A stretch of 64,000 bases of DNA, taken from NCBI RefSeq assembly GCF_003704095.1, contig NW_020846470.1, positions 73,725-137,724 on the forward strand, in the 5' to 3' direction. The translations under genes were made by a program, and so were the position numbers. Source of the DNA: Pocillopora damicornis (taxonomy: Eukaryota). The notes beneath the pieces were generated by a model. That model worked only from the letters and a program-made list of their open reading frames with translations. It was not told the DNA's origin and made no database searches. Positions 15,623 to 58,962 of the stretch are shown here, piece by piece (within the stretch, counting starts at the first letter, position 1; the number at the start of each line of letters is the position of its first letter).

Positions 15623-15743
15623 ATGCAGCGACGATTTATCATTCCCCTGATGATTTTGGTGTTAATCACGGAAGGCGAGGCATGGAGAAGAAGACGGAGG
15701 AGGCGATGGACACCACCCCCGCCTCAAAACTGCGTTGTCTCCG
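15623..15743 (+). CDS. Cadherin/EGF gene exon 1: signal peptide [20 protein letters not shown] followed by an R-rich/Pro stretch
   Basis: ATG at 15623. The hydrophobic core is typical of a signal peptide. Donor is TCC G|GTAAGT (phase 1). Confidence 0.7.
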
Positions 15744-18700: not shown

Positions 18701-21700
18701 TATTTTTAGAGCCTCTGTATGTGTCAGATGTTGTAATTTTAATGCAGCCAAAAGTTTTTTTTAATGTTATTAATTTTGTAGGCATATTATGCTTTAAACA
18801 AATAAGAAAGTTAAAATGAAATTTTTAGCGCTTCTCAATTCTGCTCTGCTAGTGGTTTTTCATCATTCAATCTTAATAATCTGTGATTATAATATTTGCT
18901 TGAGGGAGCCCATCTTTTTAAAAAGCCCTTTGCTTTCTCATGAGCCTCCTCACCATCTTTAGCCCAAGTCCTTTTATTTGGTAGCACTCTAATGTAACTT
19001 GACAATCAAATTTATGGCAAAGAAGAATGAAGCATGATCATAAAGCAAGGAAAGTAAAGAAAGTGTTTTCCTCATGCTATTGTTTTAAAGTTTTAATTCG
19101 TCATGAATTTCAATTTGTGGAATTTTTAAAGAAATAAGTTAAGATTTCTACTTTCAAATTTTCTGTTTGATTAGCAGCACTAGTGAACCTTTGCATCTTC
19201 CTCATACACTTTGATGTATTGCATTTTAGTATTACTGTAAATATACCCTGATTCAATTGTGGTAATATTTGTAATGCTCATTGTATCTGGAAGTGATGTA
19301 GAATATGGAACATATTACAAGTAGTACAGTGGACAGGCCCGAAGAAGCAGTCATTTTTTCAATTTTAGAGACTTATCAAGAGCTGCATTTTGTCAGCTGT
19401 CAAACAATGAAATTCAGTCATACACCTCACTCTCTCAGAGATTGTCTCTACAAGGGTTATATGATTTAATTAATGCTTGTGAAAAACTTTTCTAAAAGCA
19501 TGTTAATTAAAATGGTATGTGGCTTACAGTGCTCCTGTGATGGACCAGCATCTTCTATCATGAGTCCTTTAGCCCCTAAGAGTGGCAAGCTCCTAATTTC
19601 TCCCAACAATACCACCCCACTCTTGATTGTTAGACAAATTCTCCTTAGAAGTAACATACGAAATGTACAGAGAACACTATGGGGAAATTGCAAACTAAAG
19701 TTACATGTCCGGGGCAAAGGGCTTATTATCTGCAAAAGTTGCTTTGTGCTACTCAGGTTGTCAGTGATGAACTTTCTTGCAAACACTTAGAAAATGTAGC
19801 AGAATCTTCTCTCTTGATTCCCTAGCAAATGTTTTGTCATGAGACAATTCTCATTTTGTTAGGCATTTTCTAAGAAAGAAATGATTAAAACATCAATACA
19901 AGTGGTTGAAATTGAAGACGAATGAAATAAAATTAATTTTTTTAACAGGATGGAGCTCATGGAGCACCTGTTCAGAGCAGTGCCACATTGGAACGCAAAC
20001 AAGGACACGTACCGTCACAACTGCTCCTAGCTGGGGAGGCACATGTTATGATCATTTGTCTGAACAAAGATCATGTGGTATAATCAATGGAGGATGTGAT
20101 CATTATTGTAACAATGGGTTCTGCTCTTGTCAATCCGGCTACACAAAATCAGGTACAGACTCAAATTTTTGCCTTTGTTTTTCCCCAGCTTATTTAAATT
20201 GTGTCTTCATGCACTTGTGCATTAAGTGGACTTAATGCATTATAGTGAGAATTAGTAAGGCTTGTATTGTCTGCTGAAGTAGACTTCACAGTTAACAAAT
20301 TAAGGTGTTGTTAAGAGGATGTGATCCCCATTGAAAGAAGTCCTTGATCATTAAGTAAATTCTTATTGTCAGTACCTTACAGAAAATGTAGCAAACACAA
20401 AGTACCAGATGCAGAGAACAGTATGGAGAATATGCATACTCATGTCAGGGTGTGAAGGGCTAAGCACAAAGAAGTAAATGACAAAAATTTGTTGTTGATT
20501 CCTTAAACATACCTATGTTATTAGTTTTTACATTTTTTTTTCTTTTAAATGTTGATAGGTAGCAAATGTCATGACATTGATGAGTGTGCACCAAATAGTG
20601 GCAAGGGTCCATGCAGTCACATCTGTACAAACCATGCTGGCTGGTATAAATGCAAGTGCCCTTCTGGATATTATCTTACCAGTGATCACAAAACATGTCA
20701 TGCCTTTGATTGTAACAGCCCTGCCTCACTTTTCAATTCATGCCCACAAGATTCTTACAGTGACCACATCTCTTCAGTTTGTCACCAAGTTAACATTGAC
20801 TGTTTGCAAGGAACAACTTATAATGAACAATGTTCTTTAACCTGTTCTCAGAACTATGCACTTGCAAAGATTTTTACACAGCCAAACAAAAAATTTGGTG
20901 AAGATTATTCTAAAGTTGACTTCTCTTCAGTGACTTCCACTCTAACTTGCCAGAAAACGCAAAAAGGGCAGACCTCAAATGTCTGGGATGTACTGGATAG
21001 TGATATTAGCGATTACTATTGCAGACGTACAAATGATCCTCCTAGAGACTTACTGCTAAATGGGACTGTTCTTTTAGAACATGCACCTATAAACACCATT
21101 ATTGGAACTTTAAGTTCCCATGATGCACAGCCAGGACAGACTTTTATGTATACAGTTCAACAACCCAATGAGCTTCTTGTGGCTCAAGGAGATAAATTGA
21201 TAAACATATGGGACAATCCAGTTTTAAATGGGAATGTGTCTTTAAGCCAAGGCCATTATTTAGCAGTAAAAATAAGAGTGACAGATGATGGAATGCCTCC
21301 CATGTGGCTGGAGAAGACTTTTCAGATCACAATACAGAATGTGAATGATCCTCCCAAGCAAGTCACACTGTCAAATTCTGTTGTCTTTGAGAATGCAACT
21401 ATAGGAAAAGTGATAGGAGAGCTGACAGCAGTAGATGGAGATGACCCACCAAACACTCATCTCCATTCAAACTTTAAGTGGGAGTTAATTAACGATGCAA
21501 GCGGAAAATTTGGTATGACTGTGAATAAGATTATAGTTGCCCAGAATTTGTTACCAGGATTGAACAAGATAACTGTTAGATGTTCAGACTTTGGAAACCC
21601 AATAGAACAAACCACAGAAGATTTCATTATAAATGTGATAAATGTCAATGATGTCCCACAAGCTTTAATGCTGACAAGTTCCACTGTGCATGAAACAGCT

Positions 21701-24700
21701 CCTGTAAACACAACTGTGGGTCAACTTGTTGCGATTGACAAGGATGGTGATGACATCTCCTTTGACGTCAGCCAATCAGATGTAATGACATTGAATAAAT
21801 TTGACATAGCTAATGTCCAGTGTGCATATAATGGGCAAGGAACAGAGAAAGAGTGCAAAGTGAATGTCACAGTAAAAGCTCCTTTGAATTATGAGGAGAA
21901 ATCATGGTACAAGCTGAGCGTCAAAGCTAATGATTCTCAAACACAGGTGTTCAAGACTTTCAACATTGAAATTATTGATGATAATGAGGCTCCAACAGCT
22001 ATCAATCTGACAGGGTCACACACTGTGTTGGAAAATTCTGTCGCTGGGACAGTCATTGGACAGTTTGTGGTATGTCTTCCTTTGCTGTTGTTGTTGTTGT
22101 TTTTTTTTTTATAATTGGCTGTCATATTTTGCACTTTAACAACTGTGGAACATCAAACAGAGGATCTATATCTGCAAACAAAGTATAATGATGACTTGAT
22201 TGTAAGGTTTTATCTTGCTTTGGAGATGATATGACATTTTGCAGAAGTCAATTCCATGGATCATGGGCATTGCCCTTTTTCATACCCCATTTTACATGTA
22301 GAGCATAATCATAATCAGTTCTCAGTCTTATGATGTCCTTAACTTCTTGGTGCTCACAGCTTAGTTGCATTTGTCAAGTACCTTTAGAACAATTTTGTTT
22401 ATGTAGTAGTAAAGTGAATTTTACTTTGCAGTCATTTTTGAATAGATCATGAAATGCCATAGGTTAAGTATAGAGAAGGTGCGTGTAACAAGCACGGCTG
22501 TTGAATACTGACCAATTACATGGAAGCATTGTGCTGTAAAGGTTTCACATAACCAGTAAGCCTGATCAAGACTTAAATAGCAGTATACAGTCACAACCTT
22601 TCTATCTGCATAGAAGCCAAGATTTCAATTCTTGATGCAGATCAGTCTTAAATATTGATTTATAATGATTGTTTATTTGCTTTTCCTTAGGTCACTGACC
22701 CAGACAATGCCAAGTCACCATCACATCAGTATCACAAATGTTTATTTAGCGTCAGCCAGCCCATGGATGAAAGTTATTTCATTATTAGCACGCAACTTGT
22801 GTTGAAAGTGAAGGGAGCCCAACAGATTGATTATGAGAACATGAAAACTCTTTCATTTACTGTGATATGTACTGATACTGGGCATCCACCCAAGTCACTG
22901 TCAGCTAGCTTTGTTTTATCAGTGAAAGGTGAGTGGTGAATGGTTGTTCCACTTACCTTCTTTTCTTTCTGTGTTCTCTCCATTCATTTCCTTCTTCATC
23001 CCAACCTGTCTCTCTTTCATAGTTTTGCATCTATTTTTGTTCTTTGATTTGTATCTTTGTTTATGCCATTTTTTGTACAGTCAGTCATTTGCTTTCTTAT
23101 GTGCTTATTCACTTATTAGCCCCTCTGCCCCTCTTTATGTCTCTCCTTCCCACCCTCCATCCTGCTTCTCTTCCTTCCTCTTTCCCCACCTCCCGATTTT
23201 CTTCTGCCTTCTTGATTCTGTTTTTGCTTGGTTATGTGATTTCACCTTTCCATCCCTCCTACTTCCCATCCCTCCCTTCCCTACCATCAAACTCTCTTCT
23301 TCTCCTCCTCTCTTTCATTTCCTTCCTTCAGTTCCATCTTCTCTGTTTTTATGAGCCCATTCGGCAGTTTACCCACCTATCTACCACTTAACACTCATCC
23401 AAATGTATAGCCAACCATGTATCATGCATGTGATATTCTTCAGATGTCAATGAGGCTCCTGTTAACCTGACATTGTCTAGTACAAATGTGGATGAAAACT
23501 CTCCCTTGGGTACTCCAGTGGGTAGCCTTTCCTCAGAGGATCCAGACCAACCTGGAGGTGTCCACACCTACACCATCATGGGACCTGTTGGTGTACCATT
23601 TGCTATTGGAGGAGATAAGAACAGAGTGCTCCTCGTAAATGGTCCTTTGGATCATGAAACGAATCCCATTGTCTTGGTCATTATAAGGGCTACAGATGGT
23701 GGAGGACTTTTTGTAGAGAAAACCTTCAAGATAACCATTAATGGTAAGTTCTTTTTTAGGGAATGTTCGATTTTCAACCGAGAGTGTCACACGTTTTATT
23801 GTAAAAGATGGCTGACGAAAGATGGGTAAGCAAGCTTTTCCTGGGAAACCTTAAGTCTGTCTCTGCTCTCCATCTCTTTCTCTTTTCTCCCCACCCCCCC
23901 AACCCCTCCTCCTTTCAAGCCAAAGGGCCTGCACAAGCCCAAGCCAAAACAAACATAAATTTTGCCTCTAAGGTTTGTGAAACTACTCAGGGAAGGAAGT
24001 GTCCAAAGCTAAAATATTTTGAATATATTTATATTCATGGATTACTTTTGACATTTGACTATGATGATTTTGTTAACCCTTGCTTCTTACGACCTCATCA
24101 TTTTGAATCAAACACTTTCCAATCACTTTGTGCTCACATCAACAGATGTCAATGATCCACCCAGCAACCTTTCTCTTGAAACTCCATCAATGAAAGAGAA
24201 CAGCGCCGAAAGAGTGCTCATTAGTTCCATAATACTGACAGACCAAGATGGTGACTTTCCTACCTGTAGACTATTGGATGACGCTGGTGGGCGTGTCAGA
24301 GTTGTGGGCACAAATCTGGTTGCAGGACCTACTATGACAGATTACGAATCAGCTCAACTGTCATCCACTAAAGACTTCAGTATTAAATTGAATTGTTCTG
24401 ATGGTCATGGAATGTTCATAGCGAAAACGTTTACTATTAAAGTTATGGGTGAGTGCACAGGCTTGGTCATTATGGTATAACTTACTTTTTTTCTCTTTAG
24501 TATATTTGGTTTTATCCACTTGAGTTGATCGAGCTGTTGGAAGCTCAAAGCATAGATTTTGTCACAAGTTTAGGTTAGCCATATTCTCATCAAAATCCAT
24601 TTAGCATAGTAGATTATTATGCAGCACCTTTTCATCGTCCGCCTTTATTCCCGCACCGTTAACACTTAACTCCCACGAGTGACCAAGACAGAATTTCTCC

Positions 24701-27700
24701 GTCATTACATTGTATGGTTGTCGTGGTAGAGTAGCTTCCTTCTTTGCTAATATTTTTCACTTGTATTTTAATACTAGATGTGAATGAGGCCCCATCAGAT
24801 TTCACTTTGAGCGCCACCTCTGTATATGAGAATGAACCCGATACATTGGTTGGTAGAGTTACAGTAGATGACCCAGACATTGGTCAGCGGCATCGTTGTA
24901 CAGTGCACGACCGTGTCGTGAATGGAAATTTTGATTCTGGGAGGACAAGCAAGTTTTTCACTGTGGATGCTTCATTAAACCTCAAAACACTAAGTGGGCT
25001 GAATTTCGAAGCTCACCACAGTTTGGATATTTGGATTAACTGCAGTGACATTGTGGCCGACAGTCTATTTAGGACGCAGTTGTTTACTATTTTTGTCAAA
25101 GGTAAGCTAGCCGATCAACTCTTAACATGTTTGGACGTAAGGCAGGAAACTAAGGTCGAGGTTTGTTGGTAAAGTTCCTCAAAGTAAGAAAACCAATTGA
25201 TCAGGTTTTCTATAATGGACGACCTTTTTTCCACTGGCCTCTATTTTCTCTTTCAAGTTCTTGAGAAAATGGTTTTTCAGTTGTGGGACTGCCTTTCGGT
25301 GAAAATAACGGGAAACAAATTTGACCTGTTATTCCAGTGAAGGTTACCGTACTCTCTTCCAGTCCTTCAGCCCATGCAGGCGAGTCAGAGAGTGTGGGAA
25401 CGACGAACAGCAGTCGTGGTTGTCAGGGAAACGGTTTTCGCGCATGCTATTTTCACTTGTTTCCACCGTCCGAGAGCACGGCACAGGCCAAGTTTACCAA
25501 CGAGCCTCATAGATCTATCTATCAAAGAGGTTGACTTTGTGTGGTTTCCTTTATAAACTGTCGAAAACACTTCATGTATACTCACAAAAACAATTCTATT
25601 TTTTAATCCCGGTGATCTTCGATATATTCACTCTAAATTTTTGGGTCTATGCATATATTTGGATTTAATCCTTCTTCTTCTCTGCATAAACACCCCTCAT
25701 GAAGTTATTTATTCTGAAATCCTGTCAGCAGTCAGTTAAAAATTTTTCTTTTTTGGTATGATTTCTCTTCAGATGTGAATGAGGCCCCAACAGGACTGTG
25801 CAGTGCACCCATAATCATTAGTATGAAGACATCAATTGGTGCTGTGATTGCAATGCTACAGGGAGATGATCCTGATAACGAAATTGCCATCCAAAATGAC
25901 CCTTCAAACCAGAGTGTAATCATCAGGAATAAACAACAACTGACATACTCCTTGAGTCCTCAACAAAATTCTTGGCCGTTTGGAATAAAAACTGATAGTC
26001 TTTTCAAGAGTGCCGTGAGTATGATGTACAAATGATATCCTGTTATTACGATTTTACGGCATTCCTCCTCCCTTGATGTGGACACACCAGTTTATCTCTT
26101 TAATAAGCTCCGGCTGGATGGGCCACTTGGTTCGAAAAGGACCTCACCTTTTTCCTTAATAACAAGATAAATGAAAATAGTACTCAATTCTGATTGGTTA
26201 AGAAAAATGCAATTTTCAAGTGATTCACTGCAGAAGAGGGTTAACTCAGTGCAAAGAAGTAACAAACCAGACTGAATAACTCTACGGGCTCGAGCAATTT
26301 TGTTAGTCTTTGAAAAAGTTTACTTGTGCTTATTTATTCCAAATTGCACTCGAAATCATGTGATTACCTATGCCGACTACATGTACACGTTTACTCGTGC
26401 TTATTTTCGGTGGATCATGTACATTTCAAGGTCTCTCACTAGAGTTGACATCCGCCATTTGTGGTAGTTGTTAACGCCTTCCCATGTGTCCTCTCATTTC
26501 TTCTTTTTCCTTGACGATTGTCTTAATTTTTCAGGAGATATCACAAGCCCAAAATTTCACAATAGGCGTAGAAGTAAAGGATGATGGCATCATTATTTCA
26601 AGTTTCTCCCCCATGGGATACAAGTACATCAAGACCGCTCCTTTATCTGCTGTCTTGAATTGTACCATTGTTATTTCAGGTATGATGCAAATAAATTATC
26701 GTGAATGATTATCCCTCAGCATTTTGTCAAGTTTTCCAGATCGTGCTTGTCAACCCTTTGCACCCAAGCGTTTTAAAACGTATTCTCCGCACTGCTCCTT
26801 TTATACTTTCCATGGCACTGACAAGGAGAATTTGTTTGATAATCGGAAGCTTCTCAAATTGGTAATCATTTCCTTCATTCCCATAACTTTTTCATTTGAC
26901 ACAAGGGAAGAACTGTAAGGAGAAACTAGAAGCCAGACTCTCTTAGGGGTTAAAGGGTTATTATCAAAGATAAAATTTTTTATTGTTTACGTTGCATACC
27001 TTTTACTCGTTGTTGTATACTTTTTATTCGTATTTTTCTCAGAGTATCAGCCGACAGATGAAATTTTACTTCAACCTAGTGAAGTGTCCATCACAGCCAT
27101 CAGTGGTTCCTTGGTTGGCACCTTGACAACAATGACCAAGAATCCAGGGGAAACATTTGTGTATGAACTCGTAGATGAGGCACAATTACCTTTTAGTATA
27201 ATCGGAGACAGGCTAGTGGTCGCTAAGAAGGATGGTCTAGATTTTTACGTGTCAAGCGCAGAGGAAGCTTTGATTCCAATTGCAATCATCAGTAAAGGCA
27301 ACATGTCTGCGCCAGTCAGGAAATCCTTCTATGTGAGAATTATAGGTGAGATTATGAATATATATTTTTGGGAAACAGTTTTTTGTGTGCAACCAGCTGG
27401 ACTTTTGCTTATCAAGATTTTCAGAAATTCAATTAAAGAGGCTCAAAATGGATTTGTCGATTGAAATCAGATATTCTTTGATGGATCCTTGTTTCCACAC
27501 TTTAACTTTCTTTCCTTGGAATTGGTATTTAAACAATGTGCAATTATTTCTCAACAAGTTTTCATTATTTTGACACGAAAAGCTACCTTAGCAAACTAAA
27601 GCCTCCTAAACAGATCTTTAATTGAAGCTGTGCGTGTCTGCATTTTGAAAGCATGCGCTATGAACCCTATTTGCTGAATTTCTATCACCACATTACTATT

Positions 27701-30700
27701 TATCTCCTTGAAAGCTAAGAACAACCTGTAAATATGGTTCAGAGCCACTTAAAGTTTTTGATAGTTTAAGGTGGCCATTTGTGCCTATTTTAATAAAAAT
27801 TTTCAACTTTTTTTTTCCTTTTTACCTCGATTTTAGATGATAGACCTCATCCAGTGGACATTTGTTTGAATCCTCACACTGTTCATGAAAATCAACCATT
27901 GGGCACTACTGTGGGTCAGTTACATATCGAAGATTCATCATCACCGTTACTTTCTTGTGGTAAACAACGCTGCTGCAATGATTACAGCAGGAATGTTGAT
28001 TATGAATGTAAAGTGGGCACTCCTGAGAACAACTTGGTCGTTCCCCAGCTTCAGAGGAACGTGAGCGCATTGTTTAGACTCGATGATCGGAGTCGCCTTA
28101 TTACCAAGGTCCCATTGCAATACAGTGACTTCAAAGAGTCTAATGGAACTGTGCATGTTCACTTCAGCTGTTATCAAGTCAGTAAACCACTTCACTTCAT
28201 AGGGAAATCACTACAAGTTTTTATCACAGGTAAAGTTTGATATGTGAAATGTGTCTTGGGATACCACTCTGATTGTTGTGAATACATTTGAATTACCTAG
28301 TAAAAGCAAGACACACGATTTCGAGGGATGAAGTAAATTTACAATTAATGAAGATAGCTTAACTACACAGGCGCAATTCAACGCATATCCTGAAACTATC
28401 GGCTTTCTTCTTTCCTTATGTTTAGATTGTAACAGCAGTGGTGTCTGCCCAAACATCAAAGATTGTCCTTTATGTTACAACGGTGGAAGCTGTCTTGACG
28501 TGATTGACGGCTACAACTGCCAGTGCATGTCCGGTTACACAGGTGTCCATTGTGAGAAAAACATAGATGAATGCCAAAGGATCGAGTGTCAGGTGAGTGA
28601 AGCGACCTTCGACCAAATGTCCCTATAGTCAATCGCGCCTTTGTTTTGCGTATCTTACTAAGAGAACAAAGCTTTTCTCACGATTATGCGTTCAAAGCAG
28701 TATAAAAGTGAATCGAAATACAGCACTGATTACGTTAAAAGGGAATGAAAATAAATTTGCAAGCATAAACCTAAATTTAGAATCACAAGCAAAGACAAAA
28801 AGCAGTGATCGTTTCAATGAAAATGGCGGATTCGGTCCCTGGACACGCGCGCAGTGCATGAGGCTAAGCGAAGATCCTTCAAAGGAGTGATGTTACGTTT
28901 TTGCTCATCTGGACATATTGAACCTAAATTTTTTAATTCAACGTTAGTGATTCTAAATAATCTTTGCCATCTCATTCTCGTTCCCTTAATGATCATCTAT
29001 TCTTATGCGATATGACAGCGATATTAAGCGATATTACAGTAAGATAAACCTCTCCTGACACATAGCGTTTACAGACCATAGGGAAGTCTTGATATGATTT
29101 TCATAGATTCTCTTTCTTGTTTCTTTTTCCTCTCTTTAGAACGGAGGTACATGTCAGGATGGAATAGCATCGTTTACTTGCCAATGTGCAGTGGGATTTT
29201 CAGGGACATTATGTGAGCGGCAAGTATCTCTTTGTGGCGATTGTACGGGAGATACATTGTGCGTGACCTATATTTCAGCTTCCATCCGGTAAGTAATATA
29301 CAAATTTTGTATTTATAGCTTGCTTCTTAAGAAGAAAGCATCGGGTTGATTGACATTGAACCAAATGAAATGATTTGTATTGGTTCAAATATAGAGAAGA
29401 ATCTTTAAAGAATAATTAATTTTAAGGAATGTTTAAGGGTTTTCTTATTTTATATGAGTTTCTGAATCCCCTTTTCTTGCTTTTGGCAGGTGCTTAGGGA
29501 CACAGTACCAGATCCCAGTCCTTGTGAACGAATCGGAAATATCTTCTCCGAGAAAGATAGAACTGGAGAAAGAGATTGTAACCATATTGGAAGCGAACAG
29601 AAATGATGCCAACAAAGGTAAGAATGATCACATTAGAGTCAGCTTTAAGATTTTATGGAAATCAATGTCGTGCAGTTATTTGGGTTGGTCATGCAGAAAA
29701 CAGGCATATTGCATTACCACTCAAGGTACATAAACTTTAGGAACAGAAGCTGCGGGAGACTTAATGGCCTGGGCCCAGTTGTTCTAAGGTCGAGTAACCC
29801 CATGCACTGGATAAATATCTTTCCGGTGGATAGTGCAACATATTTTGTTAACACTTGTCGGCTGGATAGCGATTTATCCGTATGAAAGCGTCATGCATCC
29901 TTTATACCACTGGAATCAGTGAGTTGTTGTCCGCTGGGATCAAACGGTCAAAAGTTCAATCCCAGCCGGGTCCGACTGCGTTACGACTTTTGACTAAACA
30001 CTCGACTCACACAATGCCTCTCCCCACCCTCCCCAGCTAGAACTCAAAATTTGTAGCAGTAAACTGATAGGATTTACTTACGGTAAGGGTGGGGGAGGGG
30101 TAAGTAATACCCTTTGTGGCTTTAAGCTATGGAAACAGTAATAGATAATTGTGGGAGTAATGGGTGCTTGGGCACGCAAGACTTGACCTTATTTGACTGA
30201 GCTAGGTCGGACCTAACGGTGATTTATGCGACCTTCCATCCCCTAAATTACTCAAAATACCGTTACATAGCTCCCTCAAGCCAAATGTATCTGGGAGTCA
30301 ATGTACTCAGTCACCTTACTTGTGTCATATTTCAGTCTCCAACAGAAAACGACGAGCGCTTTCAAATTATTTCTACGTGGAGATTCTTCGAACAATATCT
30401 CTAGGTACTCAACGACAGAGCCTTTTGATCATCGCAGCGCTAGATGCAAGGAACGCATTTTCCCCTCTACCGGCCTCCGAAGCTTGCAGAATACTTGGCA
30501 ACAGTGTGCGGCAGTGCGTGGAAAGCTGTGACGTACTCCAACTAGCCAGGCTGCCCTGCCAAGGAGGTCTTAACACCAATATAGGAAACCCCTCTGTGGA
30601 CGTATCTGCCAGTAGCTTGGGGTCAGGCGGAATTGCTGGTATTGCTGTGGTGGTCATAATTCTCCTTATTGCTATCCTTTTTGGTGCTGTCTTCTACTAC

Positions 30701-33053
30701 AGAAGAAAATACAAGAAGGCGAAGGTAAACCGGTCTTAACCTTTTACTTGGAAGATTCGTCCTTATGCTTTTTTGTTCATTTGTTACGTGAATGTGGTCC
30801 TTATCAGATCTGGCCCCGGTTGTTCAAAGGTTAAATAACGCTCTCAACTGGATAAATCGCTATCCGATGGATAGCGCAGTACTTTTTCTTATCAGTTATC
30901 CTCTGGATAGTGATTTATCCGTTGGATAGCGTTATCCACTCTTTGAACTACTGGGCACAGGTTTCAGTGTCAATGTGTGAGTCACAGTTGACTTACATTA
31001 CACGTTAAAAATTGACAGCCCCGGCCGTGGCAGAGATTTTCTAGTGTTAGTGGCGCCGTACTTGTTGCTCTGTCGCATCTGATATCTTTGTTGCCTTTTC
31101 GATGTATCGCAATGGGTGCAAACCTGTTATTGGCTAGCTGTCTGTTACACTGTATTTAACCCATAGCAGATAAGAAACACTCCCCCAAGGAAATATGAGG
31201 TCGCGTGGCTTAATGGTTACAGTGTTGAGCTCAAGGGTTTGAGTCATGGGTCACGCCTTGTATATAGCCAGCTAGTTTACTCCCTGTCAGTTTGGATTTT
31301 TAATATTTTTAGGTTTAATAGAATCAAAATGAATCAGATCATTACTGCGCTATCAAGCTTTTTCCCTTTTTCGTTTCACAGAAAATTTTAAAATTTGTAA
31401 CCAACCAATCACAAACATCTTCTGGACGTATTCTCGTTTTAATTTGACAGAACGAGCATGACAGCGTCCGTTTCCAGTCAGGCACGGAAGACTTGGACTT
31501 CTCCGACCCAGTTTTTGGCGACAATAGAAATGCGCTGACGTCAGGACCATCGAGAGAGGAATGGGCTGAGAAGTTAAGGAAAGAACCCGATGGATCGGTA
31601 CGGAACAATTTGGATCCCACTACTGTTGTCAAACGTAACGATATCCAGGTTAGATTTTGATGAATTTATGATTAATGAAACTGTCTGAAACACATGGCGT
31701 AATAATCTGTTATTCGATTATTTCTAAGTAGTCTTCGGGTATTTTGTCTTCAAGTGATGCAATTGATAGTGTTTAGAACCATTTTCAATTGAGTGTGGAA
31801 AGTGATCCGGGATCGCATCGATTTTGCGTTACTTCGCTCTGTGATTGGTCAGGAAAACTCGTGCTACCGTCTCAACCAATCAGCTGCAAAACGAGAACCA
31901 ATTACGACTTGGTCATTAGCGTTTTCCCGCTCCTCAAGTTGTAGCTTGTTTATTTGTTTGTTTTTTTTTCAAGTTGTCAGAGTCCTTTTTTTTTTAATAC
32001 TTTCCTTCGCCTTAATCGGCCGTACGTTTTGTTGTTCTCACTTAAAAATAAGCTTCTGAACTAAATCATACCAAGTTGAGTTGAATTAAGGATTAGAGCT
32101 GTGCGTTTGAAATCCATGAGTTGTCGGTGAAAAGTCATAGCTAGGCGAGTACCTGACACGTTTTTCATTCATTTCAGACCAATAAAGTCCTACTGGAATT
32201 TTTATGTGTTTAATCTTGCCTTGCTTTTCTTCAGGTGACAAACAATCCTCTCTACAGTAGTCCTGGCAATGCTGCCGGAGCCGAGGCATCCAATCCAATT
32301 TACACCAAGGTGGTTGATACACCCATAGAAGATGAGATAGCGGCGGCCAAAAAGAAGAATAAAGAAGACCACACTTACGCGGAACCTAAGGATGTTACCC
32401 TCGGGGGAACTTCAAAACACCAGTATGAAAAGCCCCCTTCGAGGCGGGTATCTCACACCAAGAACACCTACGCGGATCCCAAAGATGTAACCCCTAAGGG
32501 TTCAGTGAACCCCCGCTATGAGATGTCCCCTCCGCCGCGAGTGTCGCACACTAACAACACCTACATGGAACTTCAAGATATTTCCCCTATGGGGGCGTCG
32601 AATCCGTGTTATGCTAAGTCCCCACCGGTTCGAAAATCTTTTGTGAACGACATAGATAATCACCAAGAAGGCGATGGCGCGCTTGGAAAAGTTGCAAACG
32701 CTTACTTGAAAGGTGCAAGGTCTAAAGTGCGAGCATCGAACGCATCTCAGACAAAGAAGCTTAGACGTCAAAGAACTGACGAGAAAGAAGCAACTGATGA
32801 AGAAAGTGCCGTGCTTAAAAAGAACGAGGTACCACCGTCTTTTGAAAACCCGTTTTATAGTGATAATCCGATAAGGGATCAAGACAATTTCAACGAGGAT
32901 CCAACATACGCGACTATTCCTGCATTGCAAGACAGCCGTCCGTGTTTGCCGCCAAGAACTCAACAAAGATCCTACGATACTCCAGCGGAGGAGATAGTGG
33001 TTCAAGAGGACGACGTGTACGAGAAAGTAAACTTTGGAGACACGGAGGCGTAA
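15623..33053 (+). CDS. Single-pass transmembrane cadherin-repeat / EGF / TSP1 protein with NPxY-rich cytoplasmic tail, gene span, 17 coding exons, CDS 5934 nt (about 1977 aa)
   Basis: All 17 exons join with consistent phases across canonical GT-AG introns (hand-verified). The domain order is signal peptide, TSP1, EGF, cbEGF, Cys-rich, about eight cadherin repeats, two EGF, RKRR site, TM helix, cytoplasmic tail. Confidence 0.75.
16640..16829. repeat. Long foldback (two 67-bp inverted arms, about 62/67 identical, 56-bp spacer with its own nested 9-bp inverted repeat) in intron 1 of the cadherin/EGF gene
   Basis: Left arm: aagaaatgtaaaatggtttccgtgtttacatagcctgatgtaaacacgcgggaagttgggagaacac. Right arm: gtgttctcccaacctcccgcatgtttacatcaggctatgtaaagatggaaaccattttacatttctt. 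The spacer contains ggaaaccac...gtggtttcc. A third partial unit (aaaccattttacatgagtaaacacgg) lies just upstream, at 16585-16612. Confidence 0.7.
19949..20152 (+). CDS. Cadherin/EGF gene exon 2: thrombospondin type-1 repeat plus EGF-like module
   Basis: Acceptor is tttttaacag|. The sequence (G)[42 protein letters not shown] matches the TSP1 signature WSxWSxCSxxCG...RxR...C. It is followed by [26 protein letters not shown]. Donor is TCA G|GTACAG. Confidence 0.75.
20559..22069 (+). CDS. Cadherin/EGF gene exon 3 (1511 nt): Ca-binding EGF, Cys-rich (sushi-like?) region, cadherin repeats 1 to 4 start
   Basis: The cbEGF module is [43 protein letters not shown]. Cadherin linker and Ca-binding motifs follow: [37 protein letters not shown] and LNYEEK. 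Donor is TTT GTG|GTATGT. Confidence 0.8.
22691..22928 (+). CDS. Cadherin/EGF gene exon 4 (cadherin repeat)
   Basis: The sequence ...GQFV|[10 protein letters not shown]...[24 protein letters not shown] carries the cadherin signatures VTDPD, IDYE and TDTG. Acceptor is ccttag|, donor AAA G|GTGAGT. Confidence 0.75.
22930..23400. repeat. Pyrimidine (CT)-rich low-complexity tract in intron 4 of the cadherin/EGF gene
   Basis: Long runs of tctc/ttcc/cctc. The track's spurious Ser/Leu/Pro/Phe-rich ORFs (22929..23354, 23044..23391) derive from this tract. Confidence 0.6.
23444..23743 (+). CDS. Cadherin/EGF gene exon 5 (cadherin repeat)
   Basis: Begins with the linker motif DVNEAP and contains EDPDQP, LDHETN and ATDGGG. 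Donor is AAT G|GTAAGT. Confidence 0.75.
24146..24448 (+). CDS. Cadherin/EGF gene exon 6 (cadherin repeat)
   Basis: Begins [11 protein letters not shown] and contains [15 protein letters not shown] and CSDGHG. Donor is ATG G|GTGAGT. Confidence 0.75.
24778..25101 (+). CDS. Cadherin/EGF gene exon 7 (cadherin repeat)
   Basis: Begins [11 protein letters not shown] and contains [14 protein letters not shown] and CSD. Donor is AAA G|GTAAGC. Confidence 0.75.
25773..26014 (+). CDS. Cadherin/EGF gene exon 8 (divergent cadherin-like repeat)
   Basis: Begins DVNEAPTGL and contains QGDDPDNE. Donor is GCC|GTGAGT (phase 0). Confidence 0.65.
26040..26420. repeat. Dispersed repeat family D (intron of the cadherin/EGF gene). 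Second copy at 63190-63720
   Basis: Shared blocks are ctgattg.ttaag..aaatgca.ttttcaagtgattcactgcagaagagggttaa.tcagtgcaaagaagtaac...cagactgaa.aa.tc and ttgttagtctttgaaaaa.tta.t..tgcttatttattccaaattgcactc.aaatc.tgtgattacc.at.c.aac. Confidence 0.55.
26535..26679 (+). CDS. Cadherin/EGF gene exon 9
   Basis: Acceptor is tttttcag|GAG ATA, donor TCA G|GTATGA. Open frame [26 protein letters not shown]... The phase is consistent with both neighbours. Confidence 0.6.
27043..27345 (+). CDS. Cadherin/EGF gene exon 10 (degenerate cadherin-like repeat)
   Basis: Acceptor is ttttctcag|, donor ATA G|GTGAGA. Open frame [28 protein letters not shown]... Confidence 0.6.
27837..28229 (+). CDS. Cadherin/EGF gene exon 11 (membrane-proximal Cys-containing region)
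   Basis: Acceptor is gattttag|, donor ACA G|GTAAAG. Open frame [37 protein letters not shown]... Confidence 0.6.
28426..28592 (+). CDS. Cadherin/EGF gene exon 12 (EGF-like domain)
   Basis: [56 protein letters not shown] shows the classic EGF Cys spacing. Donor is CAG|GTGAGT. Confidence 0.75.
29140..29288 (+). CDS. Cadherin/EGF gene exon 13 (EGF-like domain)
   Basis: [41 protein letters not shown]. Donor is ATC CG|GTAAGT (phase 2). Confidence 0.7.
29490..29617 (+). CDS. Cadherin/EGF gene exon 14
   Basis: Acceptor is ttttggcag|, donor AAA G|GTAAGA. Open frame (R)[42 protein letters not shown]. Confidence 0.6.
29755..29885. repeat. Foldback/MITE-like repeat family E (ggataaatcgctatcc core), intron 14 of the cadherin/EGF gene. 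Second copy at 30815-30960 in intron 15
   Basis: Both copies share ggcc.gg.cc.gttgtt.aaaggt..a.taac.c....actggataaat..ct.tcc.gtggatagtgc and internally carry the core in both orientations (ggataaatcgctatcc / ggatagcgatttatcc). Confidence 0.55.
30336..30724 (+). CDS. Cadherin/EGF gene exon 15: juxtamembrane region with RKRR furin-like site, transmembrane helix, basic stop-transfer
   Basis: ...[15 protein letters not shown]... then the TM helix [23 protein letters not shown] followed by RRKYKKAK. Donor is AAG|GTAAAC. Confidence 0.75.
31451..31648 (+). CDS. Cadherin/EGF gene exon 16 (cytoplasmic, acidic)
   Basis: Acceptor is aatttgacag|, donor CAG|GTTAGA. An open frame of 198 nt with no stop reads [25 protein letters not shown]... 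It is phase 0 on both sides, consistent with its neighbours. Confidence 0.55.
31840..31935. repeat. Dispersed repeat family G. Second copy at 47215-47290
   Basis: Shared block caaccaatcag.t.caaaac.agaacca.t..cg.cttggtc..t...t.ttt.cc.gc.c.caag. Confidence 0.4.
32235..33053 (+). CDS. Cadherin/EGF gene exon 17: cytoplasmic tail with repeated NPxY-type tyrosine motifs, stop TAA at 33051
   Basis: Acceptor is cttttcttcag|GTG ACA. The tail carries NPLY, NPIY, NPRY, NPCY, NPFY and PTYATIP. Repeated blocks (Y[AM][ED][PL].D[VI][TS]...) recur. An AATAAA lies about 265 nt downstream, at 33317-33322. Confidence 0.75.
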   Translation: MTNNPLYSSPGNAAGAEASNPIYTKVVDTPIEDEIAAAKKKNKEDHTYAEPKDVTLGGTSKHQYEKPPSRRVSHTKNTYADPKDVTPKGSVNPRYEMSPPPRVSHTNNTYMELQDISPMGASNPCYAKSPPVRKSFVNDIDNHQEGDGALGKVANAYLKGARSKVRASNASQTKKLRRQRTDEKEATDEESAVLKKNEVPPSFENPFYSDNPIRDQDNFNEDPTYATIPALQDSRPCLPPRTQQRSYDTPAEEIVVQEDDVYEKVNFGDTEA

Positions 33054-36640: not shown

Positions 36641-39599
36641 GTATGTTAAAAGAGAGATATCGTAAGCTCTGTGTTTAGCTGTGAATTATTAGAGCTCGCT
36701 ATCTTAGCGTTTTGTTTTAAAACTGGTCCATTTCGTCGAAATACAATGTTCTTGGGACCAAAACAACTGTGGTATTCAAGAGAATAGTTGTCATCAAGCT
36801 CACTTCTCTCTAATTTAGCTGCCTTTTCAGCCCTGTTTGGTTGGGAATCCTAAAGCATACAAAAAACATATTTAGATCGCAAAAAATGATTGTAAGCTTG
36901 GTCGATTTTTTTAGTTGAGGTGGGGAATGTTTTGCATTGTCTATTAATAAGCTTATGAAAACTAGAAAGATTTCGTTTGTTAATGAACCGATTCGGGTTT
37001 CGATTGTTAAAGAGAATTACGTAAAATCCATCGTTCGAGTTCACCAGAGTTCAAAAATTTTGGAGAGTTAAGAAAAAATTGAGACTAATATTAATGATGA
37101 TGAACGGACATGAGATAATTAGTGACTGTCACTTTCAAGAAAACAAATTTGATCAGAAAATTCTTCATGTTAAGTTCTGTTCCAGCAAGTCATGCTTTGC
37201 ATGAGGAAAAGGGACAGGTTGGTTACTTACAAGCATAGAAATAAGGGGGGACAGAGCAGGGTGTACATCATGCCTCTCTAACTCTGAGCAACAAATGAAT
37301 ATAACAATCTACATGAGATTAGAGGAATTTTTTTTGGAGTTGTGACCTTGGGAAAGACCCCAAATCCTCATCATAACAGGGGTTTCCAGAACTGTCATTA
37401 AGAGTCATTATGTAGATGACTAAAACCCTCTGTGAGTCTGTCTTCTTCAACCACCTACTTTCACCTCCTTGTACCATAATTTCTGATCACAAATGGTACA
37501 AGTATTGAAATACAATCAAAGAAATTTGTGTAGCAGCCATTTCCCAGTTTTAAGGGGAATTAGATGTGTGAATGGATTCCACTTTTAGAATTTGCATTAA
37601 GGTTGGTACAAACTTTTTGGAATGCTTGGGACATTTTAAGCAAATAGTTCTCAGTCTTGGCTTTGTAATCTAATAATGAAATGACTTGAGGTCCAGGTTA
37701 TCCTGGCTTCCTAATATTTCTTATTTGCACCCCAGTTACTGGCAGAAAACAGCTGCTTTCAAGGCCTTTTACTTATTAGATCTATGTCATTCAAACCATT
37801 TTTCAAGGCTTAATGCGCAATGCCTTTAGAAAGTTGGCTTTGTCAATGTAGACTTGTAAAATCTGAAAAAGAAAAAGAGAATGTTATTAGAGGTAAAAAC
37901 ATGGAGTATTATATGATATACTTTGTGTTTAACCACACCAACAACTTTTCATCAGAGAAAATGAGCAAGTATTTAGAGTACTGTATGCAAATTTCTGTCT
38001 TAATTAAATTTAAGCCCACAGTCATACCATCATTCAAGTCATTAAATTGGTTAATTGTCAGCAAATGTACCTGTGAAAAATTTTTTTCTCAATGTTTGGG
38101 GCTCAGATGGCTTGTTCATGTGGTGCCTTCAAGGAAACAGCAAGCCACTGTAATCTTTTTCTCTTTACATTGAAGTTATAGAAACATCCATATACCAGTA
38201 TTTCTAACTCAAATACAACAACTTCTTATGTTGATTTATGCCTGAGCTTAGCTGAAAGTGGAGTTTGCCCTGTGTAAAATCTGGTATTGTTATGCATTTT
38301 TTGCTCAACAGGGTTTCTCTTTAGAAGGCAATGTCAAATTCACTTTTCTGTGTGTAAATAGTCTTTCATTACTTTTTCTTGATGTAATTATTACTCTACA
38401 GAATTTGACAGGTCCTATTTAGTGCCTATTAGAATTAGCACTTGGCATTTCTTCTTTGCAGGAAGTGTTTGAAAAGTTGTTCTCACCTTATGGAAGTGAA
38501 AGTGACAGAAGCTTCATCTACTTAAAGACTTTTCATAGAGCAAGGGTTACATTTGCCAATGAAGAGTACGCAAAAGAAGCTAAGAAATACCTGCATGGGC
38601 AGCATTTTCTGGGCTATGAACTTGGCATCTTCCTTGTTCAGGTGACTATTTACACATCAAAGAGTGATGGATATGCAGCCCTTCCTTACCATATTTTATG
38701 AACAATTGGAAATAAAATACTGATCCCCACAGATGATCTTTCCAGAAGACATTGCAGATGTGTGACCTCAAAGCTCCTTTGGTAGTAGTGATCAATTGGT
38801 ATTTGGGAGGCATTGGTTTGAATTCAGGCTTCTTTTACAGCAATGTCATCAACTCATTCATCTTTGAGGATCAGATCTTAATTTTTGTTCATCCACTAGG
38901 AAGAATATGGTTCATAGACTGAATCAACCTATGATTTGTAAACACCCTACAGTAGACTCTGAATACATTTTTACTTCTCCAATTTCCTCCTTGGGATGGA
39001 GGGAGATCGATTCACAAGTATAGACCTGTGCTGATTAAATTGCAATAATCACATAAGCATTTTTGATAGAAGATGGTGTGGCAAGGATTAGTGGTATGAA
39101 TGACTTCTTTCACTAGAGAATTTCATTTTCTATGGCCTTGATAACAAAAAAAGGAAGTATGACAAACTAATCCAGCATTAAAATCATTTTCTAACACACT
39201 TTTGTGAAGTTGATTCATCAGATAGTTTTGATCATTTAGATATTGTGTATTATTTTGCAGAGACGGTCCTCCCTTAACAACAACTCTAATCTTAAACCTC
39301 CACCTCAAACAAAGCAGTTCCTGATTTCCCCTCCTGCATCACCTCCAGTTGGCTGGGAACAGACTCTTGAGTCTCACCCAGTGATCAACTATGATCTGCT
39401 GGCTGCTGTAGCCACTTTAGACACTTCACAACCTTGCCAGCTACACAAGTCTGTTGAAGATGCACCCAGCATTGTGGTACACCTGTGTGATGAAGGAGAT
39501 GTCCAAGATGGTATGAATGATGAAGGAAGCAAGTTCCACCCATTGAAAGCATTGCCAAGGGAAGTTGTGCAAACAAAAAGACCAGAAAGAAAATTGTAG
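36503..39599 (+). CDS. RCAN: RCAN/calcipressin (regulator of calcineurin) gene span, 3 coding exons, about 218 aa
   Basis: Exons 36503-36640, 38462-38641 and 39261-39599 join in phase 0. The hallmark FLISPPASPPVGWE motif and the C-terminal block PSIVVHLCDE plus a KRPE..L tail match the RCAN family (FLISPPxSPP, PxIxIT-like). The N-terminal RRM-like block ISVTNLP...F...LF..YG...F.YLKTFHRARVTF is also present. Confidence 0.85.
38462..38641 (+). CDS. RCAN: RCAN exon 2
   Basis: Acceptor is cttctttgcag|, donor CAG|GTGACT. Protein EVFEKLFSPYGSESDRSFIYLKTFHRARVTFANEEYAKEAKKYLHGQHFLGYELGIFLVQ. Confidence 0.8.
39261..39599 (+). CDS. RCAN: RCAN exon 3 (calcineurin-binding C-terminal half, stop TAG at 39597)
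   Basis: Acceptor is ttattttgcag|. Protein RRSSLNNNSNLKPPPQTKQFLISPPASPPVGWEQTLESHPVINYDLLAAVATLD... Confidence 0.85.
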   Translation, partial: RRSSLNNNSNLKPPPQTKQFLISPPASPPVGWEQTLESHPVINYDLLAAVATLDTSQPCQLHKSVEDAPSIVVHLCDEGDVQDGMNDEGSKFHPLKALPREVVQTKRPERKL

Positions 39600-39697: not shown

Positions 39698-42312
39698 TTT
39701 TATCATTGTGATCTAAGTGACCATTCTCTTTCACCTGAAACATGCAAACTAAGGTGTAGTATTAACTTTATTTCAGTTCAGAAAACATACTGACAAGTAA
39801 TGCCGTATTGGTAGAGATACATCTTTTCATTTGTGAAAAGTTCTGACTTGAGCACAAGGTGAAGGTGATGAACAAGAAAATAAATTAGTTTAAAATTTTA
39901 TTACCGTATTTATAGAGACTTCAGTCAATCATGTTGATTAGTTAAAAAGAGATAACTTATTTAAAAACAGTAAGCACAAAAAGTCTTGTGGGTCATTTAA
40001 CTTGCATCTTTTGCAGTTTTTTTGCAAATCCTTAATGGGTTCAGTTTACTTCTTTAAACCTCAAGCCAAAATGAGTAGCTAATCATTGTTATCAAGCAGC
40101 TGCTGATAATTATGGTTATGATAGTTATGGTAATGATCCAAGACTCTGAGTGACTTTTTTGATAAGTGGCTGCTAATTGAAAGGCATCAGAAGTATTTCA
40201 TTAAGTTAAGTAATTTTTCTTGGATTCCTTGTTGTCTTTCACTGAAGAATAGTCTAGGTTGGATGGTTCAAGACGTTTTGCCATATTTTTGCATCTCAGA
40301 TTTTGAGTGCCTCTGAAAATTTTCTTAAAATAAGCCTGTTATCCTTTCTGATACCTGGTAAAAATGTTTACCAATGGTATATAGAATGTGATCTGTTTGT
40401 GATCATTACCGGTACTTTATTTGATTAAATTTTTTGTGATCATGCAGCTAAGCATCAAACAGTAATAAATGAATCAAACAAATAGATGGACTGTTCCTTT
40501 TGAAATTGAGTTGTCAATGAATACGCAAGGATTGATTTTTAATATTGCAGGGAAGGCTGGCATAATGGTCTGCGCTCTACTAGCTGAAAGACTCTCGGGT
40601 TGATCGTGTAAAGGTGTTTCGTGACGACAGAGTTATGCGTGACTTAGGCTAAAGCCGTTGCGTGATGAAGAAGGTGAACGTTACTAGACCTTAGTTGAAG
40701 CCATCGAGTGTTAGTCGGGTCCTCCTCTATCCAAGATCGATCGTATAACCAAAATGTTAATACATAGCTACCCCAAGCTTTCTAAAGTGCCTCACAAGCT
40801 TCTGTGCACATCGAATAAGAGGCGGTCAGCACAGCGATGAAAACAACAGCGAGATTTGTTCACTTTGATTGAATGTAGTTAGCTGATTTACGTACGCGCT
40901 TTGTGCGGTTCTTACTTGTGATCTATGGGAGGACAGACAATAAGTCATCAGCATATTGACCTTGACGAGGTACACGCATAAAGCTTCTCCCTTGCACAAT
41001 TGTTAGTTAGGTGCGGCAGTGGTCAAGGAATGGAATGCTTTCGGTTTTTCAGAGCTCCTCGTTGGTCTCGAAAACTCTTCAAACTCGTGTCACCCTCTCA
41101 ACCAATTGGGCGCATGGCTAACACCGGCCATGACCACCGGCATTTTTCTCGAGAATCTTGTTAAAAATACAACAGCAGATTCAGTTTAAATATGAACAAA
41201 TAATTTATTGAGTTACAGATTTTGATGTATCATCCCTACAGACACCCCACAAATCTACCAAAATAATTTGAACACACCGAAAGAGTTTGCAAACACAAGA
41301 TCCATGAGAAACGATTTGCCACTGAGGACTTAAGCATGGTGGTACATAAAGAAGAAATTTGAAACGAGAAAGAGAAGCACTGAATAGCGTCTACATCTGC
41401 ATCTTCTACTTAGAAGGTTTCCACGGCAAACGCAACTTTTGGAAAGACCTTGCGCCTTGCTGACGTTTTGGTTTGGTACTATGCGGAGCAGAAACATAAA
41501 GGAGGATTATCTAACAAGCCTTTAAAGCTGATACATGGTCAGGCAAAAAACAAACAGACAAACAAACAAAAAGTAAGAGCGGGCATGTTTTTGTGATGAA
41601 CATTTCAGTAAGTATACCTCACCAAGTCACAGATATGATAGGAGAAATACAACAGTGAATTCAATCACCATGTATTCAATTTTTCACATTTGGAAATTCA
41701 GTATTTTACAACGATTTGGGTAAGTATTCTTTATCTCCACAGCCAACGACTACATAATTGTAAGGCTTAAGAGCTGCTTAAGAATTAAATTGTCTGATCA
41801 ATCACCATGACTTAACACGCAAAGTTCAAATTACCACGGTTATGATTATGTAGAAATTTCTTCTTTACATGTACCCTTTTCAGACCGCCCATAAATAACT
41901 TATTAGGGACAAGAAAAAGAACGCAGGATTTCTCGTGTAATGTGATAGCAGCCCAGGGTGAGAAAGAACATTATTTACCATCGCTCTCTTGCCTGAATAC
42001 ATAGACCCTCTGCATAAAGTAATTAAAGCTACAAGTACTGACTGTAACCTGTCATCTAGGAATAACTCAAGTGCAATTTTTTTCATGCAGATTTAAAAAA
42101 ACACAAACTAAAGAATCACACTAAAAAGTTAGTCAAACTTTGAAACATGAAAGTAAAAAATCGAAGTCAACGACAACGACAGTTGCATAAATAACGAAGT
42201 ATTTTTTACAACGATGCTCTTTCCTTTTTACAGTAAAATCAGTATAGAAAAATAAAACTCTAGATATTTAGTATGAACTTGGTGCAATAAATTGCGACAT
42301 CCATTTAAACTT

Positions 42313-42709
42313 TTATAAGTTAATTTGAACATCTTCTAACCCCAAAGGAGATACCACTTTGTTCTTTTTCTTCAAACTGTACTTTCTATCTCGAGTGGTA
42401 GCACTGCTGATGGACTCGGTTTCTCCGGAACCATCCGAACTATGGGTCGCGTCGCTCTCGAGCGATGTTCTCCGATTTCGAAAACTTTCGGGATTGTGAC
42501 TGAACGATCGGCGGAAAAGCGACGACTGATCACTGGTGAGACGTAAGAAGGGGCCTGGATCCGATGCATTGAGCTTGTCGTCTGCGTTGTTACGTCGGAA
42601 GCTTGGCGATCTTGGCGCAATGGCGTTTGCTAAATTATAACCAGCCTTGATGCTCCGCTTTATTGCCTCTTTGATGCACTTAACCATCTCTCTCTTTTCT
42701 TCTGCAGTT
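42313..42709 (-). CDS. TIAM: TIAM-like terminal exon (PH C-terminal helix, Ser-rich tail, stop at 42313)
   Basis: Acceptor is catttttgcag|. Protein ..[39 protein letters not shown]...[21 protein letters not shown]. One or more PH exons between 44800 and 42710 were not resolved. Confidence 0.55.
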
Positions 42710-46681: not shown

Positions 46682-46712
<31 letters not shown>

Positions 46713-58540: not shown

Positions 58541-58962
58541 TACAGATTGAAGAGTTGAATTGAATAGGTCACTAACTGCTGATAAATCTTCATTAAGCAG
58601 TGAATTGATTCATGCAGAATTTTCCAAATCAGAAGAGAATTTATCCATGTAGATAGCTTTACTCTTTAGAAATAATGATAAGACCCTTGCAAACAACACC
58701 TCACCTGATGCTCACATTAAGTCTACACACAAACAGGCAGATGTAGATGTGAATCAACACTTGAATCAGTGTCCCAGTTAAAGGGAAAAGGCACTATTTT
58801 GAGATTACTTTCAGAATTAGAGATCATTATTTTTGTACAATCAAAAAGGAAGTCCTTTCCTCATAAAATGCATAAATTTACCACTTTTTTTTTCTAATGA
58901 ACCAGAATTAAACAATCATACTAACCATTCAAGTTTATTTCTGCACTAAAGACAGTCTCATT

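Follow-up and report, generated by a model that had tools for sequence, protein, structure and literature searches.

NPXY motifs in cytoplasmic tails, and especially those of the form FxNPxY, are ligands of the phosphotyrosine-binding (PTB) domains of ARH, Dab2 and Numb, and they drive clathrin-dependent uptake of LDLR, LRP2, AMN and β-integrins (PMC6912373). LRP1 carries two NPxY motifs for endocytosis and adaptor docking, the distal one overlapping a YxxL signal, and the receptor is processed by furin and has its intracellular domain released by γ-secretase (PMC8192809). In CED-1, Draper and MEGF10, an NPxY motif paired with CED-6/GULP is accompanied by YxxL or by a tyrosine-based activation motif of the immunoreceptor type (ITAM) (PMC8092387). 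Here we describe a tail rich in such motifs on a different scaffold. The window analysed is a stretch of 64,000 nucleotides from the coral Pocillopora damicornis (contig NW_020846470.1 of assembly GCF_003704095.1, positions 73,725 to 137,724 of the forward strand), and its positions 32235-33053 are the last coding exon, exon 17, of the gene for a Pocillopora cadherin-superfamily type I membrane protein. We consider it somewhat better than even (roughly 0.55) that the tail of this protein serves as a multivalent docking platform for endocytic and signalling adaptors and drives endocytosis.

Between 15.6 and 33.05 kb, the + strand holds exon-like open reading frames (ORFs) matching the Pfam families TSP1, cbEGF, cadherin and EGF. 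A gene model of 17 exons was built from homologue-guided tblastn, cross-species conservation against three loci (L001-L003), and splice-site and phase bookkeeping. All its junctions are GT-AG, the phases are consistent, and the product of 1,977 aa ends in a single terminal stop. Compared with the RefSeq protein XP_058952437.1 (P. verrucosa LOC131779869, 1,976 aa), which was found in the cluster listing of a 98%-identical exon-3 ORF, the model is 98.7% identical from end to end with one single-residue gap; five of the substitutions lie in the cytoplasmic domain and none of them inside a motif. We take the gene to be the orthologue or an allele of LOC131779869. It is already annotated in RefSeq, but merely as "uncharacterized", and literature searches for the locus, the protein accession, NPxY together with cadherin and coral, and the architecture of a thrombospondin type 1 repeat (TSR) joined to cadherin repeats returned no description of this protein. 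Further named relatives were two fragmentary hypothetical proteins of Desmophyllum pertusum. A search for a single protein-database ORF spliced across the transmembrane (TM) exon, exon 16 and exon 17 found none.

The earlier note on this DNA had read the last exon as coding and not as untranslated region (UTR), and this proved right. Its ORF and stop position are kept in 15 relatives, dN/dS lies at 0.3-0.5, and the exon, which starts with Val and not with a start codon, is coding sequence (CDS) in the independent RefSeq model, where exon 16 is included too. Downstream, the gene is followed on its own strand by one for calcipressin (RCAN; 38423-39596, +), and this neighbourhood is kept in three other coral loci (L001, L003 and L007), so that the orthology of the tails is supported by synteny as well.

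In the protein, a signal peptide precedes domains of extracellular type, and the TM helix has RRKYKKAK directly behind it; this gives a type I topology, and the tail is therefore cytoplasmic. Exon 17, which the earlier note treated as the cytoplasmic tail, is indeed coding and cytoplasmic, but it is not the whole tail. Exon 16, overlooked in the first reading, sits between the TM exon (ending at 30724) and exon 17 and occupies the syntenic position in L001, L002, L003 and L007 with AG/GT sites and 47-73% amino acid identity. The cytoplasmic domain thus comprises 8 + 66 + 272 = 346 aa, and because of exon 16 the first NPxY is located about 78 residues from the membrane instead of adjoining it.

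The motifs named in the earlier note (NPLY, NPIY, NPRY, NPCY, NPFY and PTYATIP within about 270 residues) agree exactly with the translation of the 272 codons of exon 17. The five NPxY, here called sites A to E, occupy residues 4-7, 20-23, 92-95, 123-126 and 205-208, and DPTYATIP (site F) residues 222-229. By composition only 0.095 NPxY would be expected, and none of 200,000 composition-preserving shuffles of the 272 residues reached five. Translated in all six frames, the 64-kb window contains nine NPxY, and five of them belong to this exon. The cytoplasmic domain has a single exact [FY]xNPx[YF], namely SFENPFY at site E. The tail contains in addition five YxxP, and scans of the 346 aa for ITAM, its inhibitory and switch counterparts (ITIM and ITSM), PPxY and dileucine signals found none.

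Several of the motifs had also been placed in repeated blocks. The repeats are real and consist of three tandem 31-aa units (32367-32459, 32460-32552 and 32553-32645, +; 56-66% identical at the DNA level), but just NPRY and NPCY lie within them, and the repeated strings quoted in support belong to a different tyrosine of YxxP type. Each unit has two tyrosines, one in T-Y-x-[ED]-[PL] (YAEP, YADP, YMEL) and the other at the NPxY position (KHQY, NPRY, NPCY). Tandem Repeats Finder reported nothing on exon 17, the units being too diverged and visible at the protein level only.

To follow the motifs across species, we used a family set of 15 sequences, nine tail homologues from homology search and six more distant ones from an exhaustive profile search. 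The latter covered 1.84 billion representatives and gave about six further true members, all of them short ORF calls, so that the family is followed here within stony corals. P0053, P0055 and P0056 were rejected as low-complexity or bacterial false positives. P0052 (329 aa) was also set aside; it joins one half of the tail family, the N-terminal one, to bacterial-enzyme-like sequence and almost certainly arose as a chimera in assembly or ORF calling.

Conservation in orthologues, proposed in the earlier note as a check, turned out to be uneven: sites A, D, E and F are conserved, NPIY and NPRY are not. Site A is NP[LI]Y in 11 of the 12 members covering it (alignment A1 shows no variation at N4, P5 and Y7), and site D has NPxY in 11 of 14. 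Site E reads SFxNPxY in 14/14 members with a mean column identity of 0.94, and site F [DN]PxY[AMS]TIP in 14/14 with a mean identity of 0.95. Site F is a true NPxY in P0048 and P0054 (NPIYSTIP) and in P0049 (NPTYSTIP), and P0051 has its YSTIP (the YSTIPAL site) in triplicate. At the C-terminus, all 13 members that reach it show the acidic motif YE/A-x-[VL]NFG (site G; Y262, E263, F267 and G268 invariant in A1), which takes the YxxL form YEAL in P0006/7/9/10/48. At site B, the tyrosine is kept in 4 members only, with NPLH in five relatives, SPNY in P0001 and nothing in P0048, and the repeat unit carrying site C is lineage-specific, limited to the three closest species.

A basic region between sites D and E is conserved as well. 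Its mean identity is 0.75-0.81, and Y157, K159, A161, K164, R166-N169, S171, Q172, K175, R178 and Q179 are invariant in A1. This stretch could be a basophilic-kinase site or a patch resembling a nuclear localisation signal (NLS). Over the exon, the motif columns average an identity of 0.89 vs 0.47 for the other 239 columns, and invariance is most frequent for Tyr and Phe. The dN/dS was 0.50, 0.36 and 0.30 for orthologues of increasing distance. Between the window and the species of L003, the tail is 44% identical (P0003) and exon 3 is 71% identical (P0016, from the same 1,316,112-bp contig). The tail is under purifying selection yet fast-evolving.

These data also bear on the alternative that a repeat-rich tail under low constraint has produced the motifs incidentally, or that the exon is UTR, and that no specific function is involved. 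Two NPxY do lie within the lineage-specific tandem repeat, a further one is not conserved, and dN/dS rises to 0.5 against the closest relative. However, ORF, stop position and five of the motif sites have persisted in sequences whose columns outside the motifs are on average only 47% identical to the window, and the difference between motif and other columns, the outcome of the shuffles and the inclusion of the exon in the RefSeq CDS all speak the other way. The conservation data therefore contradict an explanation by UTR or chance, which we find hardly credible.

AlphaFold run with the family alignment gave a pLDDT of 51.5 and a pTM of 0.11 with no secondary structure. Pfam recognised no family in the 346-aa cytoplasmic domain at E <= 0.1, and a PDB sequence search with it returned chance matches only (an acetylcholine receptor loop, E about 0.9). 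The concentration of conservation in motifs, the dN/dS values and the predicted disorder together point to a disordered tail whose function would reside in short linear motifs. Within this predicted disordered region the motifs turn over from species to species. The 31-aa unit is present in three copies in the window, P0001 and P0002, in two in P0006/7/9/10 and in one in P0003-5; with the triplication in P0051, this indicates that motifs have been gained and lost through local duplication. Site F alternates between DPTY and NPxY. The FxNPxY of exon 16 has decayed to DFSDPVF in the window, and it reads DFSNPVYGDN in L001 and DFSNPIYGDN in P0057, both textbook FxNPxY, and has drifted to FSNQLY, FSNSVY or FSNSLY in other species. 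Because the exon 16 of these relatives bears a second canonical FxNPxY, the ancestral tail had at least two LDLR-type signals.

Close parallels to this tail are found in the LDLR family (LDLR with FDNPVY, LRP1, LRP2 and AMN), whose members are, like the coral protein, type I receptors with a disordered tail. The invariant SFENPFY is an exact FxNPxY, and the second one, DFSNPVY, is supplied by exon 16 of relatives. DPTYATI, or NPIYSTI in relatives, resembles the NPxYxxL of LRP1 in being an NPxY-type site that overlaps Yxxφ, and the ectodomain has a furin-type site as LRP1 does. The family differs in that the full coral protein has no LDL-A repeats and no YWTD propeller according to Pfam, its ectodomain being built of TSP1, EGF and cadherin modules, and in that the coral tail is 3-7 times longer with extra YxxP and acidic YExV/L motifs. 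BLAST against the tails of LDLR, LRP1, integrin β1 and APP gave matches of 4-6 residues at the motifs only. The likeness to LDLR and LRP claimed in the earlier note thus stands for the motifs (FENPFY as exact FxNPxY, DPTYATI as NPxYxxφ-like) and goes no further, there being no homology beyond these 4-6 residues. As judged from its predicted features, the coral protein has the FxNPxY of the LDLR family yet not its ectodomain and is not a member; its tail appears to be of LDLR/LRP type at the motif level without homology.

Coding status, topology, predicted disorder and motif conservation with turnover are what the analysis shows; the docking platform, and with it the phosphotyrosine or PTB-adaptor signalling suggested in the earlier note, is a proposal. 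In their unphosphorylated state, the FxNPxY and NPxY motifs would attract clathrin adaptors that have a PTB domain (Dab, ARH, Numb or GULP class), with site E, and ancestrally the exon-16 site, as a putative PTB-adaptor or clathrin sorting signal. At site F, an NPxY-type turn would be joined with a Yxxφ signal, and YATI would recruit AP-2. Through PTB adaptors and AP-2 together, the adhesion receptor would be internalised and recycled. The YxxP and the acidic YExV/L motifs are likely substrates of Src-type kinases and, once phosphorylated, would recruit SH2 proteins of the Crk, Nck, Src and Syk classes for signalling.

Several points weigh against this proposal. The dN/dS of 0.3-0.5 means a fairly relaxed constraint across much of the tail. 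Among the five NPxY, NPIY and NPRY lack conservation, and in the window exon 16 holds a decayed motif (N to D, Y to F), so that not all of the motifs are functional. A Phe at position -5, typical of Dab and ARH ligands, is present in just one motif of this species. Finally, NPxY is also read by the FERM-F3 domains of talin, kindlin and SNX17, and the partners could be cytoskeletal or recycling factors in place of clathrin adaptors.

This last point leads to integrins, whose β tails of about 47 aa have a membrane-proximal NPxY. An integrin β subunit is an adhesion receptor whose two or more NPxY/NxxY are recognised by PTB or FERM-F3 domains, as those of the coral protein would be, and NPxY of the coral tail might couple in the same way, binding FERM F3 domains of talin or kindlin type and so tying the cadherin ectodomain to actin, while endocytic adaptors would compete for the sites. 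Multiple NPxY in a type I adhesion receptor fit this. Of the four tails compared by BLAST, β1 was the best (NPIY...VV; VNPKYE/VNPRYE) with E = 0.007 in a tiny search space. Numb, Dab2 and ARH also bind the NPXY of β-integrins (PMC6912373). However, the β1 matches fall on sites B and C, precisely the two that are not conserved, and the coral tail is long and disordered with its first NPxY far from the membrane. Integrin β subunits have an ectodomain of βI-like, hybrid, PSI and I-EGF modules and a short tail in which a membrane-proximal NPxY is followed by a distal NxxY. Membership among them was rejected on the coral tail and on the absence of integrin domains in Pfam, and we regard integrin-like coupling as unlikely.

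The ectodomain shows what the docking platform would be attached to. On the full product, Pfam finds TSP1, FXa/cbEGF (two N-terminal EGF-type modules), cadherin and three hEGF. PF00028 scores E = 3.8e-38 over four significant stretches, and about 9-10 repeat boundaries of the form DVN[ED][AP]P are visible in the model; such tandem extracellular repeats with putative calcium-binding linkers place the protein in the cadherin superfamily. Its PDB matches are protocadherins, CDH23 and CELSR. Assigning a subfamily by this similarity was abandoned as not discriminating, as Pcdh-γ, CDH23 and CELSR score about equal. With the non-classical cadherins (protocadherins, CDH23, CELSR, Fat/Dachsous, calsyntenin), the protein shares about 10 repeats joined by linkers of DxNDxP type, EGF modules close to the membrane and a tail that is lineage-specific and lacks a catenin-binding domain. 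It departs from them in having TSP1 plus cbEGF at the N-terminus and a multi-NPxY tail. A classical cadherin of types I-IV was rejected because Cadherin_C, the domain that binds p120 and β-catenin, is like any other Pfam family missing from the cytoplasmic domain at the threshold given above. The coral skeletal-matrix cadherin (Takeuchi et al. 2016) is a classical type-III cadherin with a catenin-binding domain (PMC4890752) and thus a different gene. A tail rich in NPxY is unusual for a cadherin. E-cadherin has no obvious NPXY according to a review (PMC6912373).

The earlier note had further raised a possible engulfment-receptor-like function, for which we found no specific support. The likeness to CED-1, Draper, MEGF10 and Jedi-1 consists of the single pass, the EGF modules and a tail with NPxY and a YxxL-type tyrosine (PMC8092387). 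The coral protein differs from them in lacking EMI, the long array of atypical EGF modules and ITAM, and in an ectodomain made mostly of cadherin repeats. Since Pfam did not find the EMI and the long EGF/NIM array by which the CED-1 family is defined (PMC8092387), membership was rejected. The tails of that family combine NPxY with an ITAM in Draper and MEGF10 and with YxxL in CED-1. In the coral tail, NPxY is conserved, no ITAM (YxxL/I-x6-12-YxxL/I) occurs in the window, and the C-terminal tyrosine motif is YxxV here and YEAL in several relatives. A phagocytic receptor of this kind would signal from NPxY to CED-6/GULP and from phosphorylated YxxL or ITAM to Syk/Shark or Crk, and would take up corpses, microbes or algal symbionts. 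The conserved NPxY with the C-terminal YExV/L, which is YEAL in several relatives, corresponds to the motif pair of CED-1 (PMC8092387), and the N-terminal TSP1 is of interest since TSR domains have been implicated in how symbionts colonise cnidarians (PMC5446238). But this pair marks LRP1 and other endocytic receptors just as much, the scan found neither ITAM nor ITIM nor ITSM, the ectodomain is a cadherin-repeat array, and homology does not extend past 4-6 residues; a CED-1-like function is in our view quite unlikely. A more speculative version is a phagocytic or endocytic recognition receptor of the coral lineage, in which the TSP1/EGF head would bind apoptotic cells, microbes or Symbiodiniaceae and the tail, with its multiple NPxY, YxxP and acidic YxxL, would trigger uptake signalling of GULP/Dab plus Crk/Syk type. 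We consider this a long shot; if true, the protein would be a functional analogue of CED-1/Draper or LRP1 on a cadherin scaffold. In the published catalogue of cnidarian TSR proteins, a TSR-cadherin architecture is not listed, and most of the proteins have no TM domain (PMC5446238).

A furin-like RKRR site is located about 95 residues before the TM helix (~30344-30355, +) in exon 15, an exon conserved in P0008, P0011, P0059, P0060 and P0061, and the site itself is also found in P0011, P0059 and P0060. It suggests that the ectodomain is cut into two chains, like that of LRP1. One could extend this to proteolysis of LRP1/Notch type, with furin cleavage at RKRR, shedding, and release of the intracellular domain by γ-secretase, the basic patch of the tail acting as NLS and NPxY binding PTB domains of Fe65/X11 type. 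Both the RKRR site and the basic stretch KK[LF][KR]RQR, which is nearly invariant, would fit, and LRP1 provides a precedent for furin processing, γ-secretase release and NPxY-adaptor binding in one receptor (PMC8192809). The case is, however, purely motif-based and the cleavage itself predicted only, while the basic patch fits a kinase site or a membrane/phospholipid contact equally well, and we hold this course of events to be highly improbable.

Returning to the docking platform, the tails of cadherin-superfamily proteins are as a rule coupled to catenins or polarity proteins, or have no known partner. If the proposal is true, a receptor with cadherin repeats that is connected to endocytic and phosphotyrosine adaptors of LDLR/LRP type would be a different way to regulate adhesion or ligand uptake in a reef-building coral. 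The predicted combination of a cadherin scaffold with a multi-NPxY tail in LDLR/LRP style is unusual, its components all being well known. The gene is present across stony corals, and its single TSP1 repeat is a domain type already linked to symbiont colonisation. With sites A, D, E, F and G, the motif map (Table 1) offers precise targets for mutation.

Table 1. Coordinates in the window of the gene, its last exons and the sequence motifs of the cytoplasmic domain
Feature	Position	Strand	Description
Whole gene	15623-33053	+	Signal peptide and R7, TSP1, EGF/cbEGF, ~10 cadherin repeats, 3 EGF, RKRR site, TM, 346-aa cytoplasmic domain
Exon 15	30336-30724	+	Juxtamembrane ectodomain, RKRR furin-like site, TM helix, stop-transfer; phase-0 donor AAG/gt
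TM helix	30632-30700	+	23 residues, hydrophobic; exon 15
Stop-transfer RRKYKKAK	30701-30724	+	Exon 15
Exon 16	31451-31648	+	198 nt, 66 aa, phase 0/0; junctions acag/AAC and CAG/gt
Decayed LDLR-type motif FSDPVF (DFSDPVF)	31499-31516	+	Exon 16
Exon 17	32235-33053	+	Last coding exon, 272 aa and stop (33051-33053); acceptor ttcttcag/GTG, AG at 32233-32234, polypyrimidine tract
Site A, NPLY	32244-32255	+	Kept as NP[LI]Y
Site B, NPIY	32292-32303	+	Not conserved as tyrosine motif
Site C, NPRY	32508-32519	+	Inside tandem unit
Site D, NPCY	32601-32612	+	Inside tandem unit
Y157 and basic stretch	32700-32774	+	A-Y-[LM]-K-G-A tyrosine, then basic stretch including KK[LF][KR]RQR[ST]
Site E, SFENPFY	32838-32858	+	Canonical LDLR-type FxNPxY, also contains NPF
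Site F, DPTYATIP	32898-32921	+	NPxY-derived, overlaps Yxxφ (YATI)
Site G, YExV/L	33006-33038	+	Acidic-flanked C-terminal tyrosine motif; EDDTYEAL in several relatives

Some further features of the gene deserve mention. The C-terminal part of exon 16 (EWAEKL[KR]K...NLDP..V[VI]KRNDI[KQ]) is strongly conserved. The exon is a phase-0/0 cassette, the skipping of which would preserve the reading frame. At the other end of the gene, exon 1 (15623-15743, +) encodes a run of seven arginines directly after the predicted signal peptide, an unusual mature N-terminus that might be a propeptide or a convertase site. P0029 and P0037, two D. pertusum proteins, keep this run, as does the RefSeq model of P. verrucosa.

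As for the remaining genes of the window, a multi-exon superfamily 1 (SF1) helicase gene (AAA_30/AAA_19; L004) lies upstream in divergent orientation at ~8641-14960 (-), and an annotation of a Tara scaffold gives it a HELB winged-helix domain. An apparently intronless ORF of 329 aa at 3111-4097 (-) encodes a rhodopsin-family G-protein-coupled receptor (PF00001, E = 4e-17). A large multi-exon gene with Ser-rich exons spans ~42300-54800 (-) and has a PH domain at 53362-53778, and a reverse-transcriptase (RVT_1) fragment at ~56720-58610 (-) is likely the remnant of a LINE-type retroelement.

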